Shown piece after piece: positions 12,729 to 33,425 of a DNA stretch of 64,000 nt; within the stretch, counting starts at the first letter, position 1, and each line of letters starts with the position of its first letter. Source of the stretch: Escherichia phage Murica; the sequence record NC_041871.1; one strand, 5' to 3'. A program made the position numbers and the translations under genes. Under the pieces are notes generated by a model. It made no database searches and was not told the origin of the DNA. It saw only the letters and a program-made list of their open reading frames with translations.

Positions 12729-13007
12729 ATGAGCTGTGAAAAATCTTTTTTCTTTATTATTTACGGTAAAGATAACTGCCCACATTGTGTAAGAGCAAAA
12801 GAATTTGCAGTCAGTAAAGGTCTGCCTTTTGTATATAAGACACTTGGCGAGGGTTACACAAAAGAAGAGCTTATTGAGAAGTGCAGTCCAATCGTACCCA
12901 GAACGTTGCCGCAGATCTTCTTAGAAAGCAATCTTGAAAGTGTCCATATAGGCGGTGCCGACGATTTCATCTCTTTTGTTAAGAATGGTTTTGGAGAGAA
13001 AAAGTGA
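12729..13007 (+). CDS. glutaredoxin (T4 NrdC-like)
   Basis: CPHC active site; LPQIF...HIGGADDF matches T4 glutaredoxin. Confidence 0.8.
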   Translation: MSCEKSFFFIIYGKDNCPHCVRAKEFAVSKGLPFVYKTLGEGYTKEELIEKCSPIVPRTLPQIFLESNLESVHIGGADDFISFVKNGFGEKK

Positions 13008-15127
13008 AAGTTGTAAAACGGGACGGTAGAGAAGAGGTCTATAACGGAATTAAGGTGATCAAGGCGGCAGAGTCCGCCTTACTTGAGTCTGGACATACTG
13101 AAGAAGAAGCTTACCGGATCGCTTGTGCGGTTAATGAAGTTGTTGCTAACAATCTACCAACCGACCAGTGCACAATCTCTGTAAAAAATATCCATATCCT
13201 TGTTGAAGATGCTCTTATGGATATGGGTTTAAAATGTGCAGCCAGAGAATACATCCAGTATAGACAGACAAGAGATAATAACAGAGAGGCAGGTGGAAAA
13301 CTGCTTGCAGATATTAGTGGCTTCTTGGATCGAACTTGTGATGAATTTACAAAAGAAAACGCAAATAAGCCTACCAATCATGTACACACTCATCGTGACC
13401 TGCTTGCAGGCATCCTTAGCAAACACCTTGCATCAACACAGATCCTGCCAGACCGTGTCTCAGAAGAGCACAATAAAGGCTTCATCCATGTGCATGATCT
13501 TGACTACTTGATCAGTCCGTTAACAAACTGTTGTTTGGTAAATTATCCAGATATGTTGGAAAACGGATTCAACATTGGTAACGCCCATGTCAGTAAGCCG
13601 AAGTCAATAGGGGTTGCAACAACAATCCTTAGCCAAATCTCTAGTGCGGTAGCTAGTGCTCAATATGGGGGTCAGACTATGAGCCATATTGATCATTATC
13701 TGGCACAGTATGCTGAGGCGACTTATGAGAAGAACCTTAAATTTTGCCAGGAACATTGGTTGCCAGATGCTGAGACTGTTGCAATGCAGATGACAGATAA
13801 AGACGTATTTGACAGCATGCAGACTTTACTCTATCAAATCAATACGTTAACTTCTGTCAACGGGCAAACCCCATTCATCACATTAAGTTTAGGTCTGGAC
13901 ACCTCAGTCTTTGGTAGAATGATTACCAAAAACTACTTGAAAGTCCACAAAATGGGTCTTGGTGAAGAACGTATCACACCTGTGTTCCCTAAAGTGTTGT
14001 TCTTCCTAGAAGAGGGTGTCAACATGAACCCTGGAGATCCTAACTATGATTTGAAACGATTAGCTCTGGAATGCTCTGCAGAGCGGATTTATCCTGACTT
14101 TGTTTCTGTTCCACTAAATCGTAAAGTGACAGGCTCGACAGATGGCAAAGTAACGAGCATGGGTTGCCGGAGTTTTCTTAGCAAATACAGTGACTTGGAA
14201 ACAGGCGAGGAGAAATATCTTGGCAGATTTAACTTAGGCGTTGTTAGCCTTAACCTACCAATGATTGCGGCAAAAGCTAAGACGGAAGGTGTTGATTTCT
14301 TTGCAGTTCTTGACGAATACTTGGATCTTGCATACGAGGCTCACCTTGTAAGGGTTAACCGTCTAAAAGGAACAAAGGCAGGGCAGAACCCCATCATGTG
14401 GTGTGAAGGAGCTCTTGCTCGCCTGGATCCTGAAGAGAGTGTTGATAAACTCTTCTATGACGGGTACGCTTCCATCAGTATTGGGTATATTGGTGTGTAT
14501 GAAACCTGTCAGATTTTGGGTAGAGAGGGTGACAAGGCTTTAGCTCTTGGAATCCTTCAGCACATGAGAGATGCTTGTGAGCGATACAAGAAGGAAAGTA
14601 GACTAGCGTTTAGCTTGTACGGCACTCCTTCTGAGAGTCTATGCTATAAAGCTGCAACCTGTCTGGATCGTGAATATCCGGAAGTGTTGAAGCACGAGCA
14701 TGAATATCTCACCAACAGTTTCCATCAGCCAGTATGGATAAATAGCTCTCCTTTTGATAAGTGGGAGTATGAGGAAGGTTTTGCTATGATCTCCTCTGGT
14801 GGCAACATCGGATACGTAGAGACACCTAACCTGAAAAACAACTTGGATGCTTTAGAGGCTCTTGTTGACTTCGGGTATAAACACATTATGTATTTTGGTA
14901 TTAACCAACCTGTGGATAAATGTCTCAAGTGTGGTTTCTCTGGTGAGTTCAGTGCAACAGCTAAAGGGTTCTGCTGCCCTGCGTGCGGATGCCACGATGA
15001 ACAATATATCTCAGTGATCCGAAGAGTGTCTGGATATCTTTCCAGTCCTAACTCCCGTCCTTACAATAAAGGTAAGCAAGCGGAAGTTATCGAGCGAGTT
15101 AAGCACTACGGAAGTTGTGGTTGCTGA
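13004..15127 (+). CDS. nrdD: anaerobic ribonucleoside-triphosphate reductase
   Basis: HRDLLAGILSKH, NGQTPFITLSLGLDTS, C-terminal Cys cluster and glycyl-radical RVSGYLSSP align with E. coli NrdD; GTG start. Confidence 0.95.
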   Translation: MKVVKRDGREEVYNGIKVIKAAESALLESGHTEEEAYRIACAVNEVVANNLPTDQCTISVKNIHILVEDALMDMGLKCAAREYIQYRQTRDNNREAGGKLLADISGFLDRTCDEFTKENANKPTNHVHTHRDLLAGILSKHLASTQILPDRVSEEHNKGFIHVHDLDYLISPLTNCCLVNYPDMLENGFNIGNAHVSKPKSIGVATTILSQISSAVASAQYGGQTMSHIDHYLAQYAEATYEKNLKFCQEHWLPDAETVAMQMTDKDVFDSMQTLLYQINTLTSVNGQTPFITLSLGLDTSVFGRMITKNYLKVHKMGLGEERITPVFPKVLFFLEEGVNMNPGDPNYDLKRLALECSAERIYPDFVSVPLNRKVTGSTDGKVTSMGCRSFLSKYSDLETGEEKYLGRFNLGVVSLNLPMIAAKAKTEGVDFFAVLDEYLDLAYEAHLVRVNRLKGTKAGQNPIMWCEGALARLDPEESVDKLFYDGYASISIGYIGVYETCQILGREGDKALALGILQHMRDACERYKKESRLAFSLYGTPSESLCYKAATCLDREYPEVLKHEHEYLTNSFHQPVWINSSPFDKWEYEEGFAMISSGGNIGYVETPNLKNNLDALEALVDFGYKHIMYFGINQPVDKCLKCGFSGEFSATAKGFCCPACGCHDEQYISVIRRVSGYLSSPNSRPYNKGKQAEVIERVKHYGSCGC

Positions 15128-15780: not shown

Positions 15781-15810
15781 TTGACAAAGCTTTGTTTAGA
15801 TAGGTATAAT
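15781..15810 (+). promoter_or_regulatory. sigma70-like promoter
   Basis: TTGACA (15781-15786), 18 nt, TATAAT (15805-15810); palindrome CAAAGCTTTG overlaps -35. Confidence 0.5.
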
Positions 15811-15841: not shown

Positions 15842-15955
15842 ATGGCTAAAAAAGCCTTGAAGAAGGCGTACAAGAAAGAGATTGCGCTTGAGCTTAAGAA
15901 AAAACACAAGCGTGAAAAGAAACATCATGAAGATGAAGAGGGGGTGCAACAGTGA
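15842..15955 (+). CDS. lysine-rich miniprotein (37 aa)
   Basis: MAKKALKKAYKKEIALELKKKHKREKKHHEDEEGVQQ; GGAGGT SD. Confidence 0.45.
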   Translation: MAKKALKKAYKKEIALELKKKHKREKKHHEDEEGVQQ

Positions 15956-16340: not shown

Positions 16341-17129
16341 ATGGGTCGAGCTAAAGAAACAAAACGCATGCGTGATGAAGCTAGAGAGGCTCGCAAATCT
16401 GATCGCCTGCGTAAGGCTGCTGAGAAATTTGCTGACGAAAGAGAGCACACCGCTCCAGCTCTCCGACCAATGAATAAGAAGCAGCAAAAGTATCTTGATT
16501 ATCTAGGGTCACGTAAGATTATTATTGTAAACGGTGTGTTTGGATCCGGTAAGACATTCATGGCATCTGCATATGCAGGTGATCTTCTGCGTAAGAACGA
16601 GATTGATAAGATTATTGTTGCACGTCCTTACGTTCAGACAGGAAAGACTTCAGGATTTAAACCTGGAAATGCAATGCAGAAACTGTGGCCCTATCTTCGA
16701 AGCATGATGGACACGATTTGTCGTCGTGTTGGCAAAGGTGCTTTTGCCGCAATGCTGGGAGACGGTCAGAACAGCCGTATCGAGATTTGTGAAGTTGAAA
16801 GCATTCGTGGTCGTAGTTTCGATGAGCGATGCTTTGTCCTGATTGACGAGGCACAGCAAACTAACCCTGAAGAAATGTTGTCAATTATCACAAGGATCTC
16901 TGATCAAGCCACCCTTGTAATTATGGGTGATAATAGCCAACGTGACATCCCTGGTAAATCTGGCCTTGCATGGGTGACGGATTTCTTTACTCGTCATCCA
17001 GATCCTGAGGTTGGAATGATCAGCTTTGATAGTCCAGACGATGTCGTTCGTTCCGGGTTGGGTCGTCAGATCGCACTCAATCTTATTGATGATCGTGCAA
17101 ATCATATTTGGACCCCTGTTTCCGAGTAA
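16341..17129 (+). CDS. phoH: PhoH-like ATPase
   Basis: Walker A GVFGSGKTFMA, Walker B FVLIDEAQ; AAGGAG SD. Confidence 0.75.
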   Translation: MGRAKETKRMRDEAREARKSDRLRKAAEKFADEREHTAPALRPMNKKQQKYLDYLGSRKIIIVNGVFGSGKTFMASAYAGDLLRKNEIDKIIVARPYVQTGKTSGFKPGNAMQKLWPYLRSMMDTICRRVGKGAFAAMLGDGQNSRIEICEVESIRGRSFDERCFVLIDEAQQTNPEEMLSIITRISDQATLVIMGDNSQRDIPGKSGLAWVTDFFTRHPDPEVGMISFDSPDDVVRSGLGRQIALNLIDDRANHIWTPVSE

Positions 17130-17134
17130 TACAG

Positions 17135-17155
17135 AAGGGTGGTTATTCCACCCTT
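17135..17155 (+). other. stem-loop after phoH (no U-tract)
   Basis: AAGGGTGG-ttatt-CCACCCTT. Confidence 0.35.
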
Positions 17156-17173
17156 AAATATCTAAAACAGTTG

Positions 17174-17202
17174 TTGACAAATAGGTAAGCTTTAGATATT
17201 AT
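17174..17202 (+). promoter_or_regulatory. sigma70-like promoter
   Basis: TTGACA (17174-17179), 17 nt, TATTAT (17197-17202). Confidence 0.5.
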
Positions 17203-17230
17203 TATCGGACAAAACAGAGAGAAGGACAGT

Positions 17231-17542
17231 ATGGCTACAATACAAGAGAAACTGAATAAAATATACTGCCTGTTTGTCTATAACGGCGAGACAATTTTGG
17301 CAAATAAGGGATCCAAGAATGTGTGGACCAAGGACAGCGGTGGTAATATAATTAACTTAGCGTTGCTACGTGAGCGCCGACACAGATTCTTTATCGAGTC
17401 TAGAATTATTGAAAGCAGCACTTGCTACAGAACAGGCGATAAAGTAATTGTTGACAATGATACGTGGTATGTGGTAGACTGGCAATCATTGAGTTGTGAT
17501 GCTTCTGACAATCGTAAGTATTCCATAGTGATTGCTAAATAA
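17231..17542 (+). CDS. hypothetical protein
   Basis: ATG after AGAGAGAAGGA; 103 codons. Confidence 0.5.
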   Translation: MATIQEKLNKIYCLFVYNGETILANKGSKNVWTKDSGGNIINLALLRERRHRFFIESRIIESSTCYRTGDKVIVDNDTWYVVDWQSLSCDASDNRKYSIVIAK

Positions 17543-17602
17543 AGGTAAATGTGAATCAGGTTTAAATAAATAGCTTTCAACTTCCAATATTAAGGATTTC
17601 TC

Positions 17603-18652
17603 ATGAATTTAACACCTCGCAGAACCATGGTACACGGCATGAAAGAAAAACAGAACGGTTTCGAACCTATGAGTAATAAAATGTTTGGTATGCCGGGCGG
17701 TATCATGGAAACATACAGCTACCCAACACCTGTTGTTGACCACGTTCTTTATATCGACGATTTGGAAGACTTACAAGATCATATGTCTCGCCTGCAGACG
17801 ATCCGTATGGCTCAGCCTGAAGAAAGCATTCGAGTGATCATTAACAGCCCTGGTGGTTGCGTGCACATTGCGATGGCTTATCTGCAGGCATTCCGCGAGT
17901 CTCAGGCAAGCGTTGTTGCACATGCTGAAGGAATGTGCTGCTCTGCGGGAACAATCTTATGGCTGGGTTGCAAAGAACGCACTGTGGCTCCGGACACAGA
18001 GTTTATGTTCCACTACTATCAAGGTGGCACTTATGGTAACGGTGTGAACATGAATACTCAGGTCAGCTACTGGAAAAAACGTTTTGAACGCCTGATTGAA
18101 AAATACTACGGTGGGGTGCTGACAGAAGATGAGATCGCATCCATCACAGCTGGTGGCGAAGTGTGGTTGGACGGAGAAGAGCTGGCAGCACGCACTGGAG
18201 CTATTATTCTGGATGAAGGCAACATACAACGCATCCAGAACGGACAAAAACCGAAAAAGCTTCTGGCAAAAGGTGATGAAGAAGGCGTGTTAGGTGAAGC
18301 AGGTCTCCCGGAGATTCACCAGTGCACATCTTTAGATGAGTTAGTTCATGCTGTTGAATCTGCAAAAGCGGGTGGTTCGAAAGGTGATGTTCACACTGTG
18401 TTCCTGAATCTGCAGATGGAAAGTGGCGAGACCGTCAGAATTGCCCTGGGTGAGATTACTTCAGAAGATCTGCAGAGATTCTCTGTCGTTGAACTTCAGG
18501 ATATTCTGTCTCAATTGAAGACTACTCTGAACGGCGGTGAAGAGGTTAAGGTGAAAGATAAGACTCGCAAGCGTCTGGTGGACAATATTATTAAAACAGC
18601 AAAAGAGCTCAATGAAAAAATCCTGGGTGCAGGAATTGTCGAAGAAGCTTAA
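17603..18652 (+). CDS. ClpP-family serine peptidase-like protein
   Basis: INSPGG, Ser in MCCSAGT, His in FMFHYYQGG parallel ClpP INSPGG / AASMG / MIHQPLGG; about 150 extra C-terminal residues. Confidence 0.55.
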   Translation: MNLTPRRTMVHGMKEKQNGFEPMSNKMFGMPGGIMETYSYPTPVVDHVLYIDDLEDLQDHMSRLQTIRMAQPEESIRVIINSPGGCVHIAMAYLQAFRESQASVVAHAEGMCCSAGTILWLGCKERTVAPDTEFMFHYYQGGTYGNGVNMNTQVSYWKKRFERLIEKYYGGVLTEDEIASITAGGEVWLDGEELAARTGAIILDEGNIQRIQNGQKPKKLLAKGDEEGVLGEAGLPEIHQCTSLDELVHAVESAKAGGSKGDVHTVFLNLQMESGETVRIALGEITSEDLQRFSVVELQDILSQLKTTLNGGEEVKVKDKTRKRLVDNIIKTAKELNEKILGAGIVEEA

Positions 18653-18703: not shown

Positions 18704-19237
18704 ATGACTTGTGCTAGAAAACCTGATGAACAACGTAACGCCTACGATGAGTATGTGACACCGGAGTGGTGTGCAGAAGGGCTGTATGACCTTATTCAGT
18801 TCCCAGAAGACTGGACCTACTTAGAGCCTTGCAGGAATAGTGCCTCAGGTGTGTTCTACTCCCGTATGCCGTTAGGATCTGCATGGGGAGAAATACAAGA
18901 AGGTGTTGACTATCTGAATACAGAATACAACCATGTTGACTGTATTATCACCAACCCACCATACAGCCTGGCTCGTGAGTTTGTAGACAAGGCGTTGAAA
19001 GATGCTGACGTAGTTATTATGCTTTTGCGTCTTAATTTTCTGGAAAGCAAAGCCAGATTTGAATGGTGGCTTGATAATGCACCTACTACTGTGATCACAA
19101 TATCTAAGCGTCCATCATTTCAATCAAACGGCAGAACTGACGGGCAAGCATATGCATATTTTGTGTGGGATAAGAAAAACCGTTTAGACTTGCCGCCGTT
19201 TATGTGGTTGGCACCCCCAGAGGTAGACCTGAAATGA
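18704..19237 (+). CDS. DNA N6-adenine methyltransferase, phage Dam-like
   Basis: YVTPEW N-terminal motif and IITNPPYSLAREFV catalytic motif. Confidence 0.65.
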   Translation: MTCARKPDEQRNAYDEYVTPEWCAEGLYDLIQFPEDWTYLEPCRNSASGVFYSRMPLGSAWGEIQEGVDYLNTEYNHVDCIITNPPYSLAREFVDKALKDADVVIMLLRLNFLESKARFEWWLDNAPTTVITISKRPSFQSNGRTDGQAYAYFVWDKKNRLDLPPFMWLAPPEVDLK

Positions 19238-19518
19238 AAATGAGTGCTAAGGACAAATTACACCATCTAGCGCTAAAACGCCCTGTAACGCTCCCTGACG
19301 AACTTAACTCCATTTATGATGCGATTGTAGGGGAGATACAAAATAAAGCGTTAGCAGGCTTTCTGGGGTGCGGATTTTCGATAAATCTACCCTCGCATCT
19401 CTCAGATTACTTCCCGCACATTGTTGGAGATTTAAGGGCAGGAGGTCTGCAGGTAGATGTTGTTGGCATCTCCCCAGAGAAAAATAATACGGTTGCCTAC
19501 TTGACAGTAACCTGGTAG
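19234..19518 (+). CDS. hypothetical protein
   Basis: ATG 19234 overlaps upstream stop (ATGA). Confidence 0.45.
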   Translation: MKMSAKDKLHHLALKRPVTLPDELNSIYDAIVGEIQNKALAGFLGCGFSINLPSHLSDYFPHIVGDLRAGGLQVDVVGISPEKNNTVAYLTVTW

Positions 19519-21467: not shown

Positions 21468-21653
21468 ATGGTAAAAAATAAATCTTTAGAGCAGGCTGAA
21501 AACCTTCTCCACGAGCTGGTAAAGGAGTGGAAAGTTGAATACTCAGATTTTAATGCACGAGAGGGTGAAGATTATTGGCCTACGGAGCGCTCAGAGGGCG
21601 AATGGTATCAAGATTTTATAGAGTGGTTATATCAGACGTGCGATGAGGGGTGA
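21468..21653 (+). CDS. hypothetical acidic protein
   Basis: ATG 21468 six nt after AAAGGAGA. Confidence 0.45.
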   Translation: MVKNKSLEQAENLLHELVKEWKVEYSDFNAREGEDYWPTERSEGEWYQDFIEWLYQTCDEG

Positions 21654-21655
21654 CG

Positions 21656-22120
21656 ATGTTTGTTAAATATGTAAAAACGTGCCTCAACAGTCTTGGCAGA
21701 GAGCATTGGTACACCTTGCTTGAAAAAGGGGAAATTTTAACAAAATCTGGAAAGATAACTTTGATACCTCTTGATAGTAAAGGTAAAGACCCGTCACGAC
21801 TTGTTATAGATGATTACGTTACAGGTGTGACGTTCGAGGTCTCTGTGGAGAGGTTAATACGCAGAGCTGGCGGCCCTTATGACCGAAGAGAGTATGTTTT
21901 CGATTCCGTTACAGAGATGGGGGAGCATCCGTCTTTAATGTTCAGGATGGTAATCAGAGATATGAGGTCATCTATAGATAGGATCGTAAAGGACATTAAG
22001 GAACCTTTTAGAGTAAAAGTTAAGAAGTTTTTCGATTCTAAGATTAACATACTCGCCGTTGCACTAGGTGTAGTTCAACTTCTGTTAATTTTGCACTATT
22101 TTGAACTACTATTTAAGTAG
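21656..22120 (+). CDS. hypothetical protein with C-terminal hydrophobic helix
   Basis: ATG 21656 after GAGGGG; C-terminal ILAVALGVVQLLLIL. Confidence 0.5.
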   Translation: MFVKYVKTCLNSLGREHWYTLLEKGEILTKSGKITLIPLDSKGKDPSRLVIDDYVTGVTFEVSVERLIRRAGGPYDRREYVFDSVTEMGEHPSLMFRMVIRDMRSSIDRIVKDIKEPFRVKVKKFFDSKINILAVALGVVQLLLILHYFELLFK

Positions 22121-30871: not shown

Positions 30872-30962
30872 CACACAATTAGCTGCCCGGCTAAAGTGCT
30901 GGAGCACCTACAATACATCTTTCAACTAAATTTCCCACCACCACAATCACTTACCTTCCACA

Positions 30963-31025
30963 CATGACTGTTTGCTTGTTTAGTGAGCAGTCATGCCTTG
31001 ACATTCTTGCCTATCCTGATAAAAT
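30963..31025 (+). promoter_or_regulatory. sigma70-like promoter with upstream inverted repeat, firing into ORF-free region
   Basis: CATGACTG (30963-30970) / CAGTCATG (30988-30995); TTGACA (30998-31003), 16 nt, TAAAAT (31020-31025). Confidence 0.45.
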
Positions 31026-32349
31026 TAAGTTCTTCTCTTTTCTTTTACCGAGTAATTCGGGTTTTCTGTTCTCTTCGGTTTGAAGGGGTATGGAGATACA
31101 CCTGAGTGAACATGGTGAACAACCGAACATTTGGCTATGGCATTAGCATGGCGAAGCGGACGGGTGACGAAAGAGGGGCCGGAGGACACCAGTCACTGCC
31201 ATATGATATATGGGTGATAACCTGAAGAGTCTGAATAAGTGTTTAAGTACCAGTCAGAGGAAAAGGTGAATGGTAGCCGAAGGGGGAGGGGGGTTTCTTG
31301 TATCTTTAATTTGTATATTATGTATACACTCGTAAACCAATCTCATCTGAATCTGTTTACCACACAAAGTAGATAGGGACAAATATCACCTATTAAACTT
31401 GAATTATTTATAGAAAATACCACAACACCACTTAAGTCTTTGATTTTACACACAAATCCTACAGATATTCAACCTCTATATTTAACATATTCATAACATA
31501 TTCCATACTCTACCTGTCTGATCAATTTACCCAACCACATCCTCCATATTTTCCCTGTCTGTACCACCCCTGCCCCGCCGGGAGTCCCGTCATATCTGGC
31601 TTTCCAGCAAATATCACACCCACAAATATCATTGCCTGAAGAGGGTTTCATCCCATAGTACATGCCTTACCTGAAGAGCGCTTCATACACCACGTAAATT
31701 TTTTAATTTACCCCCCCTCCCCGCCGCCGGAGTGGTCGGCTTTTCCCACACAGGCCTGAAGAGTCAGCCAGAAATATCTGAACAGGTCCAGTTATACCAC
31801 GATTTTGACCTGACCGACAGGAGTGCTGCCAGGCGGACGGAATGGGAATACTTCTCATTCTTATAATAATTCTCAAATATCGAGGCAGTGAGGCAAATTA
31901 ATAGGTGAGGCCGTTCACACAGTGGCACAACATTTGCAATCTATTTTGTGAGGGTGAATGAGAATACCTATCATTGTGAGAACTGTTATCATTACGGGCA
32001 ATTTAACATAATACCCATTATGCGCACCACTGGCGATCCATACAGGGATTGATAACATGAGTTACAGTTTACGCATATAACAATCATATTTCTTACTATT
32101 TGTGTGGGATATAGTTAGCAGCCGATAGATTAGATATTGACCTGTGGACTTCCAACCGTCTAGACGTCTAAACGCCCACACAACAAGGATTATACATACA
32201 TTACTGAATGTAAACAGGGCCGCAAAAATGCTACCATACCAGATTGTAAATTTTTCATGCAGCACTTGACAAAGAGGAGAAAAACTTGTCTGACACAATA
32301 TGACATACTGGGCACATTAAACACACTTTAGACTTAATTGACATGCCTG

Positions 32350-32469
32350 ACTGTTTACGCTGTCACTATTCACGCTATTACTATTCACTCCCTTTACTGT
32401 TCACGCTCTTACTGTTTACATGCTTAATGGTTTACATGACCAATAGTTTACATAGCTAACTATTTACAT
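32350..32469. repeat. iteron array: 8 direct 11-bp repeats at 15-16 bp period
   Basis: actgtttacgc, actattcacgc, actattcactc, actgttcacgc, actgtttacat, atggtttacat, atagtttacat, actatttacat starting at about 32350, 32365, 32380, 32396, 32411, 32427, 32443, 32459. Confidence 0.8.
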
Positions 32470-32481
32470 GGAAATGATAAG

Positions 32482-32762
32482 CCATGCCATTCGTTTGCAT
32501 GATAACTATTAGCAAGTTAATAATCTTTCGCTGGCTATGCCAGGTGACCTTTGGTCACCCCTTCGGGTGTTTCTATGACATAATATAAAAGCAGGGCAAC
32601 TATTAGAAGATCTATAGTTGCCTTGCTTGTTATGTCATGATTAACTAAATACAAGGCAACTATGATCTGATTAATAGTTTGCAAACAAACTATCACGGGG
32701 GGTGATGGTTACTGCTTTTATATTATGTCGCGACTCCGTCGCGCCATGCCATTCGTTTGCAT
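32482..32762. repeat. nested direct/inverted repeat complex
   Basis: 19-bp direct repeat CCATGCCATTCGTTTGCAT (32482 and 32744); 18-bp inverted repeat TGACATAATATAAAAGCAG (32576) / CTGCTTTTATATTATGTC (32712); palindromes GGTGACC-ttt-GGTCACC (32543-32559) and GGCAACTAT-N10-ATAGTTGCC (32595-32622). Confidence 0.75.
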
Positions 32763-33388
32763 AGTTGCCTTATTGTTACAGATAAAATAATTGTATTGTT
32801 AATTATTTCTTATCTTTCTCTTAGTCATCTAATGATTCCAGTCAGTATAGTAATGTACAGTAAACATTAGACGACTAAAGATTTATATGCTTATAATAAC
32901 TTACAGTGACAATTTCGGACTGTTTACGAAAAATGTTGACACCTGAGCCGATTTATGTTATGCAGTTTACACGAATAATTATTTTATGCAGGTATTGACT
33001 ATTCCGTTATTCTATGGTCGGAATAAATACTTAGCAGTCTATAGAATGGTGACGCTACGTGAATTCTGGAATTTAGTGGCTATAGTTATACCCGATTTTT
33101 CACGTAGAACACGCTTTTGTGGTTATGTAAGTGTATGACTTATAAAGATTTTTAGTTGTTGACAAGACACTGAAGATATGCATCAGGTTAAATTTTGTGC
33201 AATAGCTGCATTACGTGCAATTTTGGAAGGAAAAACGTGTAAAAATGGCCCTGCTACCACACAATGAAAGATTATGCAATAGCTATTTTATATGTATGTT
33301 TGTACAGTGTGTGGGATTGATGGCTAGTCAATTATTCCACTTGCCAGGTGGGGACGTTTGTGGTAGGAGAAATACAGACAAAAAGAAA

Positions 33389-33406
33389 GGGGCCTTTTAA
33401 AGCCCC
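33389..33406 (-). terminator. terminator closing the - strand arm
   Basis: GGGGC-cttttaaa-GCCCC with U-tract on - strand (complement of AAAAGAAA 33381-33388). Confidence 0.5.
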
Positions 33407-33425
33407 TGATAGTTTAGTTAAGAAA

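Follow-up and report, generated by a model that had tools for sequence, protein, structure and literature searches.

The product of the open reading frame at positions 17603–18652 of a 64,000-nucleotide stretch of Escherichia phage Murica (NC_041871.1; hereafter the window) adopts a predicted ClpP fold, is not the head-maturation protease of this phage, and is dispensable in the laboratory. Our preferred reading, held with slightly better than even confidence, is that this ClpP-like gene (clp) encodes a self-contained, ATPase-independent ClpP-fold serine peptidase that is made early, is dispensable, and bears a lineage-specific C-terminal module for recruitment. The gene itself is already known and catalogued, as it has been annotated since publication of the rV5 genome, has its own PHROG family, and is covered by gene-level fitness data. 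Its value as a discovery is thus limited, and the gain lies in correcting the "ATP-dependent" part of its current label, which is probably wrong.

A catalogued gene in a conserved, probably early-transcribed neighborhood

The 3-kb neighborhood of clp is up to 99.3% identical to that of rV5-like coliphages (genus Vequintavirus), with 121 matching records. At the gene level, nucleotide identity reaches 97.6% to rV5 ORF122 (rv5_gp117) and 97.9% to bas54_0171 of Bas54/MaxBurger (Bas54 is MaxBurger, the clp coordinates 105763–106812 being identical), and the gene is found in 117 phage records at 89% nucleotide identity or more, under names such as "ClpP ATP-dependent protease subunit" and "ClpP-like protease". 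A full-length match to PHROG 5410 (E = 4.9e-155, residues 24–345 against profile positions 4–322 of 323) takes in the C-terminal module as well. Our literature searches, which covered rV5, ICP1, PVP-SE1, and phi92, turned up no functional study of a phage ClpP-like protein, and the main text of the CRISPRi-ART paper, which uses the rV5-like phage EdH4, does not mention the ClpP-like gene.

The genes and signals around clp in the window are as follows:

16341–17129, + strand: phoH-like ATPase gene (Pfam PhoH, 160.9 bits), conserved upstream neighbor
17174–17202, + strand: sigma70-type promoter-like site TTGACA-17-TATTAT (11/12 consensus), upstream of orf103 and clp
17231–17542, + strand: orf103, a small conserved ORF (PHROG 5456, E = 2e-39), immediately 5' of clp
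17592–17596, + strand: Shine-Dalgarno sequence AAGGA, 6 nt 5' of the clp ATG
17603–18652, + strand: ClpP-like protease coding sequence, 349 aa (rV5 ORF122/rv5_gp117; bas54_0171)
18704–19237, + strand: DNA methyltransferase gene (PHROG 799, E = 1e-66), conserved downstream neighbor

As the initial annotation described, clp lies between phoH and a methyltransferase gene with no capsid genes nearby, a single 103-aa ORF separating it from phoH. The order phoH, orf103, clp, methyltransferase, orf104 is shared with rV5, EmilHeitz, Seu621, and Bas54, and is complete in 14 of the 17 Vequintavirinae loci taken from IMG/VR (L011–L027). An orf103 match is present upstream of clp in 15 of these loci (L022 and L027 have none), and a phoH match is missing only from L024. 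The methyltransferase gene directly 3' of clp is conserved in both Vequintavirinae and Barbavirus. Neither of the internal ATG codons of the ORF (M13 and M23) is preceded by a Shine-Dalgarno sequence comparable to AAGGA.

The near-consensus match to a sigma70 promoter at 17174–17202, between phoH and orf103, suggests early or middle transcription of clp by the host RNA polymerase, along with the nrd genes, phoH, and the methyltransferase gene, and the rV5 record lists a "Sigma70-type promoter P121" at the equivalent position. In our preferred reading, clp would probably be transcribed early by the host polymerase, alongside genes of nucleotide metabolism, and its expression would precede or accompany that of the replication functions.

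A ClpP fold with conserved serine and histidine

Sequence and structure comparisons divide the protein into an N-terminal region, a peptidase domain, a linker, and a C-terminal module, with the following features:

17603–17734, + strand: N-terminal region, residues 1–44, predicted to be disordered; FGxPG and YSYP are conserved motifs here, and similarity to the ClpP axial loop is absent
17735–18238, + strand: ClpP-fold peptidase domain with handle helix, residues 45–212 (pLDDT ~90; Foldseek)
17942–17944, + strand: codon of Ser114, the predicted nucleophile, aligned to E. coli ClpP Ser97
18011–18013, + strand: codon of His137, aligned to E. coli ClpP His122
18158–18160, + strand: codon of Glu186, aligned to ClpP Asp171 (E, Q, or D among clade members)
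18239–18388, + strand: variable acidic linker, residues 213–262, with one predicted helix (residues 244–257)
18389–18631, + strand: C-terminal module, residues 263–343, a beta-hairpin followed by a helix pair resembling a helix-extended-helix arrangement

Similarity to ClpP is much stronger than chance would produce. The Pfam CLP_protease model scores 47.7 bits (cutoff 20.2, E = 2e-12), dozens of solved ClpP chains are matched by sequence (E ~1e-7), and a Foldseek search with an AlphaFold2 model aligns the protein to ClpP chains with E ~3e-10 and target TM-scores of 0.62–0.74. Mean pLDDT of this model is 76, reaching ~90 over residues 45–215 and falling below 50 in residues 1–42. The ClpP-type motifs that had been noticed from the sequence are all present in this ORF, namely INSPGG (residues 80–85), CCSAGT (112–117), and FMFHYYQGG (134–142). 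The peptidase domain stops around residue 212, leaving a C-terminal extension of ~140 residues, close to the roughly 150 originally estimated.

Ser114 and His137 are invariant across 20 family members and six distant phage homologues, and the NSPGG of the oxyanion region is invariant in all homologues examined, including those at 25–35% identity. The position of ClpP Asp171 is more variable: it is occupied by Glu186 in this protein, by Gln in most Vequintavirinae relatives, and by Asp in the ICP1, Xoo-sp13, and Torridgeon homologues. Ser114, His137, and Glu186 as third residue would form the catalytic set of a serine peptidase.

Determinants of coupling to Clp ATPases

Despite this fold, no curated model of cellular ClpP reached its threshold: TIGR00493 scored 33.2 bits (cutoff 308.6), PRK00277 38.2 bits (cutoff 249), and the PRK ClpP subfamily models as a group 38–39 bits (cutoffs 228–249). 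We then compared the protein with E. coli ClpP at the residues listed for the ADEP and IGF-loop docking site (10.1101/2023.03.01.530711). This mapping relied on MAFFT and on a family HMM (HMMER), two independent alignments that agree with each other and, at ~20% identity, have NSPGG and the Ser and His motifs as fixed points. At the site where ClpX and ClpA dock, Tyr60, Tyr62, and Phe82 of E. coli ClpP correspond to Arg77, Ile79, and Glu99 of the phage protein, and Ile90, Met92, and Leu114 to His107, Glu109, and Ala129, while Leu48 and Phe49 lie within a deletion of five residues. Of the substituting residues, Arg77, Glu99, His107, and Glu109 do not vary within the phage family.

The inter-ring contacts differ as well. 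Among the elements described for ClpP in PMC9035409, the oligomerisation sensor Arg170 and its preceding residue are an invariant Gly184-Gly185 pair in the phage family, the HQP motif is HYY (HNY in relatives), and the QAT/QXT motif is NGV (DGA in relatives). Finally, nothing in the phage protein aligned with the axial N-terminal loop of ClpP, and this region is variable or absent among homologues, the one from Barba19A (Barbavirus) beginning straight at strand 1.

Judged from these alignments, the features through which true ClpP couples to ClpX and ClpA appear to be absent from the phage protein, and the "ATP-dependent protease subunit" label is poorly supported. With these determinants absent and every curated ClpP model failed, the name "ATP-dependent Clp protease proteolytic subunit" probably claims too much, and "ClpP-like (ClpP-fold) serine peptidase, non-structural" would be safer. 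It is from the missing coupling features that we infer a self-contained mode of action, in which the peptidase most likely works without Clp ATPases.

These data also bear on two alternatives in which the protein would engage the host Clp machinery. In the first, which we consider quite improbable, it would be a genuine Clp proteolytic subunit, either working with host ClpX/ClpA or co-assembled with host ClpP, and would redirect ATP-dependent proteolysis. The retained ClpP fold, Ser and His residues, and handle helix are all compatible with such a role, as is the "ATP-dependent protease subunit" annotation carried by many database records. Bacteria also possess ClpP paralogues whose third residue is not Asp and which are active only in hetero-complexes, and these paralogues, such as Listeria ClpP1, could by analogy provide a precedent. 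However, a functional subunit is difficult to reconcile with a docking pocket turned into invariant charged or polar residues, an absent axial loop, a sensor Arg replaced by Gly, the loss of both HQP and QAT, and scores of 33–39 bits where curated ClpP models require 228–309.

The second alternative, a catalytically dead decoy or scaffold acting by binding only, seems extremely unlikely. A decoy for host Clp machinery had been one of the roles proposed in the initial annotation, and it is disfavored, since the docking site, axial loops, and inter-ring sensor are not conserved and the protein falls below the cutoff of every curated ClpP model; the docking pocket and axial loops that a Clp decoy would require are exactly what is absent. 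An unconserved triad Asp position, with Gln in most relatives, could point to a loss of activity, but Ser114, His137, and NSPGG remain invariant across all homologues examined.

A separate, essential head protease

The initial annotation proposed to tell ClpP and prohead protease families apart by profile search. Here the best NCBIfam model was NF045542, "head maturation protease, ClpP-related", at 60.4 bits, below its cutoff of 120 but ahead of the cellular ClpP models (at most 39 bits), which likewise fail. A ClpP-like prohead protease/capsid fusion model ranked second, the ICP1 and Barbavirus homologues rank these models alike, and PHROG profiles of head-maturation proteases scored 53–79 bits against the ClpP-like protein. 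ClpP-related phage head maturation proteases do not depend on Clp ATPases, and C-terminal extensions are frequent among them. By these profile scores, the clade looks nearer to ATPase-independent phage prohead proteases than to cellular ClpP, although neither curated threshold is passed, and it could reasonably be inferred to have arisen from a prohead-type protease that was duplicated or relocated. By analogy with the ClpP-related prohead proteases, the protein would probably assemble into a ring.

The genomic position of the gene is nonetheless unlike that of a head protease. The window corresponds to approximately 64–128 kb of the EmilHeitz genome in reverse orientation, with the head module outside of it. 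Comparison with EmilHeitz and rV5 places this module ~25 kb past the 5' end of the window and ~35 kb from clp, so that head genes are not adjacent to clp. In EmilHeitz it comprises terminase, portal, a 139-aa "prohead protease", scaffold, decoration protein, and major capsid protein genes, and the 139-aa product has a 65-bit match to the Pfam family Peptidase_S78_2 (XkdF-type; cutoff 24). A phmmer search revealed no second ClpP-like gene among the ORFs of the window or in the whole EmilHeitz genome.

Transposon insertion data for Bas54 separate the two proteases genetically. In the HIDEN-SEQ study (10.1101/2025.11.20.689424, Extended Data Table 8), the portal, scaffold, decoration, and capsid genes are essential, and so is the S78_2 head protease gene bas54_0006, in which 1 of 24 TA sites was hit. 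The ClpP-like gene bas54_0171 was classified as "Intermediate" in the same work, with insertions at 28 of its 44 TA sites and mean counts of 127–149 in liquid competition (10.1101/2025.11.20.689424), and its neighbors phoH, orf103, and the methyltransferase gene were non-essential (10.1101/2025.11.20.689424). The "Intermediate" class suggests that the ClpP-like gene makes some contribution to fitness. For two clinical E. coli isolates, the retrieved rows of the resampling analysis of the Bas54 library list clp as unchanged (log2 fold change 0.23, q = 1; 10.1101/2025.11.20.689424), which is weak evidence that the gene plays no role in countering the defences of those two strains.

These results reject the possibility that the ClpP-like gene is the true head protease placed far from the capsid genes, as the S78_2 protease is essential in Bas54 and clp tolerates insertions. 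They also bear out the original suggestion of a stand-alone, non-structural protease. Virion composition is in line with this picture: the virion proteins named in the text of the rV5 mass spectrometry study (gp52, 53, 60, 61, 64, and "gp133") do not include the ClpP-like protein, and the virion table of the related Certrevirus CB7 includes the head-module protease and does not list any Clp protein, with the proviso that virion proteomics may miss proteases that exit or self-digest. The "gp133" of this rV5 list is not the ClpP-like protein, since it corresponds to ORF133, a 151-aa protein encoded 3 kb downstream, and not to ORF122. This virion protein gene thus lies in the same block as clp, and location by itself is not decisive.

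An accessory role in capsid maturation can still be envisaged, in which the XkdF-type protease would do the main job and the C-terminal module of the ClpP-like protein would target procapsids, leading to the trimming of internal or minor head proteins. We consider this unlikely. Outside of its own family, the best curated and PHROG matches of the protein are to ClpP-related head maturation proteases, although the NF045542 score is half of the cutoff (60.4 vs. 120). Protease-scaffold fusions show a similar architecture of protease, linker, and helical C-terminus, and the layout of the phage protein recalls them, which might hint at a related function, but the C-terminal module resembles neither the scaffold of the phage nor any other protein encoded in the window or in EmilHeitz. 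Similarly, ORF133 shows that the gene block can encode virion proteins and the "Intermediate" class falls short of full neutrality, yet clp sits ~35 kb away from the head genes and downstream of a sigma70-type promoter, and its product is missing from the virion proteins reported for rV5 and CB7. T5-like and KVP40-like phages have well-known dedicated head proteases, and their ClpP-like homologues lie in replication or lysis regions, which further argues against a capsid function.

Distribution across phages and association with phoH

A non-structural context was seen in about ten phage lineages, and distant homologues sharing 25–36% identity over the peptidase domain likewise sit outside head modules. 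Such "second" ClpP-fold proteins are widespread among large lytic phages. Gene order around the homologues includes ribonucleotide reductase, phoH, two small ORFs, clp, and ligase in ICP1; phoH, clp, and methyltransferase in Barbavirus; dNMP kinase, clp, and holin in T5-like phages; DHFR, clp, and a DNA repair gene in a KVP40-like phage; and ligase, clp, and primase in Xoo-sp13. In PAK_P1, clp is found amid small early-type ORFs, in Acinetobacter phage BS46 phoH is located 0.7 kb 5' of clp, and the two genes share 8 nt in Otagovirus phiPsa315.

This recurrence raises the question of a functional pair with the adjacent PhoH-like ATPase, which would constitute a phage-specific system for ATP-dependent degradation or remodelling. 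A phoH gene lies 5' of clp on the same strand, at a distance of 0–3.4 kb, in Vequintavirinae, ICP1, Barbavirus, Otagovirus, BS46, and two IMG/VR contigs. However, these lineages may share common ancestry, in which case the gene order may simply be inherited, and the linkage is missing in T5-like, KVP40-like, PAK_P1, and Xoo-sp13 phages. None of ~60 weaker IMG/VR loci encoding ClpP-like proteins of 180–205 aa (28–31% identity) has phoH nearby. PhoH is, to our knowledge, not an AAA+ unfoldase, and we know of no protease partner for it. The phenotypes in Bas54 also differ, phoH being fully non-essential and clp "Intermediate". On balance, a dedicated PhoH–ClpP-like system appears very unlikely.

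A more speculative variant, to which we likewise attach little probability, starts from the recurrence of the phoH-then-clp pair in six divergent lineages and the overlap of the two genes in Otagovirus. Under this hypothesis, a prohead-type ClpP-fold peptidase would have been exapted as an early effector coupled to the PhoH-like ATPase and acting on host proteins or ribonucleoproteins, with the charged surface formed by R77, E99, H107, and E109 serving as a new docking site. A PhoH link, or a substrate, would be of moderate interest for phage–host biology if found.

A lineage-specific C-terminal module

The linker that follows the peptidase domain (residues 213–262) is poorly conserved and of variable length, with low pLDDT at residues 223–239 and 259–262. 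It leads into the C-terminal module, in which F293, E297, and R322 are invariant. Long extensions occur only in Vequintavirinae and in the 326-aa ICP1 protein, and those of the two groups can barely be aligned to each other.

Searches with this region returned essentially the family itself. Pfam yielded nothing significant for the C-terminus alone, and exhaustive HMMER searching of 1.8 billion representatives retrieved only family members and two repeat-rich proteins (P0040 and P0041), the latter judged to be spurious compositional matches. A copy of the capsid-binding end of the scaffold, or of another phage protein, was considered and rejected, as phmmer against every ORF in the window and in the complete EmilHeitz genome matched the module only to itself. 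The module is acidic (pI 5.15), and for this reason a protein–protein role, either in the recruitment of a partner or substrate or in oligomerisation, seems more likely than nucleic-acid binding. In the ATPase-independent peptidase we favor, a flexible linker would join the peptidase to this helical module of ~85 residues, which could recruit a partner or substrate within the cytoplasm of the infected cell.

Comparison with known systems

The ORF at 17603–18652 does not differ in substance from rV5 ORF122 or from the BASEL "ClpP-like protease" (bas49_0178, bas54_0171); together with PHROG 5410, these are the same gene, of 349 aa and with the same neighbors. The phage protein has the fold of bacterial ClpP (MEROPS S14; TIGR00493; E. 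coli), keeps Ser and His within matching motifs, and retains a handle helix of comparable length, but it differs from the E. coli enzyme by a Glu or Gln in place of Asp171 and by an extra C-terminal extension of 140 aa.

By score, the nearest curated family is that of the ClpP-related head maturation proteases (NF045542; PHROGs 1684, 94, 2976, and 133). In contrast to members of the NF045542 family, however, the gene described here is located outside the head module, is non-essential, and is absent from reported virion proteins, in phages that encode a separate S78_2 head protease. A further group comprises the short ClpP-like proteins of PHROG 1827, found in ICP1, PAK_P1-like, Otagovirus, Barbavirus, T5-like, KVP40-like, and jumbo phages. 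These belong to the same peptidase-domain clade, with invariant Ser and His, and homologues of this type are encoded in replication, nucleotide-metabolism, or lysis regions as opposed to head modules. Most short ClpP-like homologues are 180–240 aa long and consist of the peptidase without the C-terminal module.

Gene neighbourhood of the ClpP-like gene

The ClpP-like peptidase gene is preceded on the same strand by a phoH-like ATPase gene in six divergent phage lineages (window 16341-18652; homologue loci L004, L009, L092, L095 and L011-L029). Barbavirus has the pair side by side, and in Otagovirus they share an 8-nt overlap; T5-like, KVP40-like, PAK_P1 and Xoo-sp13 phages lack the linkage. 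This arrangement could reflect inherited gene order or functional coupling. Two further ORFs lie downstream of this pair:

19204-19518, + strand: small ORF of PHROG 12158, just 3′ of the methyltransferase gene; orthologue of bas54_0169
~21650-22120, + strand: counterpart of rV5 ORF133 ("gp133"), by correspondence to the rV5 ORF

In the transposon study of the rV5-like relative Bas54 (HIDEN-SEQ, 10.1101/2025.11.20.689424), bas54_0169 received few insertions (8/19 TA sites) and its counts in liquid competition averaged 1.8; this small ORF seems to carry a larger fitness weight than its neighbours, including the ClpP-like gene. The ORF133 product was listed among the predominant virion proteins in the rV5 paper; its counterpart here, which has a hydrophobic segment at its end, sits in a stretch of early-type genes, at a large distance from the structural module.

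A repeat-containing, ORF-poor gap

~30900-33420: ORF-poor gap of ~2.5 kb between convergently transcribed gene blocks
~32480-32780: repeat cluster within the gap

GC content dips and GC skew reverses at the gap, which contains GGCAACTAT/ATAGTTGCC in several copies, a 20-nt direct repeat whose copies at 32481 and 32743 are exact, and an inverted repeat of 18 nt with perfect arms (32577-32594 / 32712-32729). An Rfam search of the gap returned no family match. Judged from genome position, it appears to correspond to the ~2-kb intergenic region of Bas54 in which the transposon study recovered zero insertions and, because of this apparent correspondence, it may represent a replication origin or some other cis element that is essential.

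Comparison with related genomes

About 18 unannotated MG0656xx records labelled as Campylobacter phages (C12, C14, A147 and others) share 97-99% identity with E. coli rV5-like phages in this region, which suggests host misassignment or contamination.

13004-15127, + strand: nrdD, anaerobic ribonucleotide reductase gene, uninterrupted
15781-15810, + strand: sigma70 consensus promoter, TTGACA-18-TATAAT, perfect 12/12 match

The promoter, directly 3′ of nrdG and 5′ of the ORF at 15952, appears to match promoter P118 of rV5. The nrdD gene of rV5 is likewise uninterrupted; in the annotations of EmilHeitz (a related complete genome) and Bas54, a homing-endonuclease insertion splits the gene.
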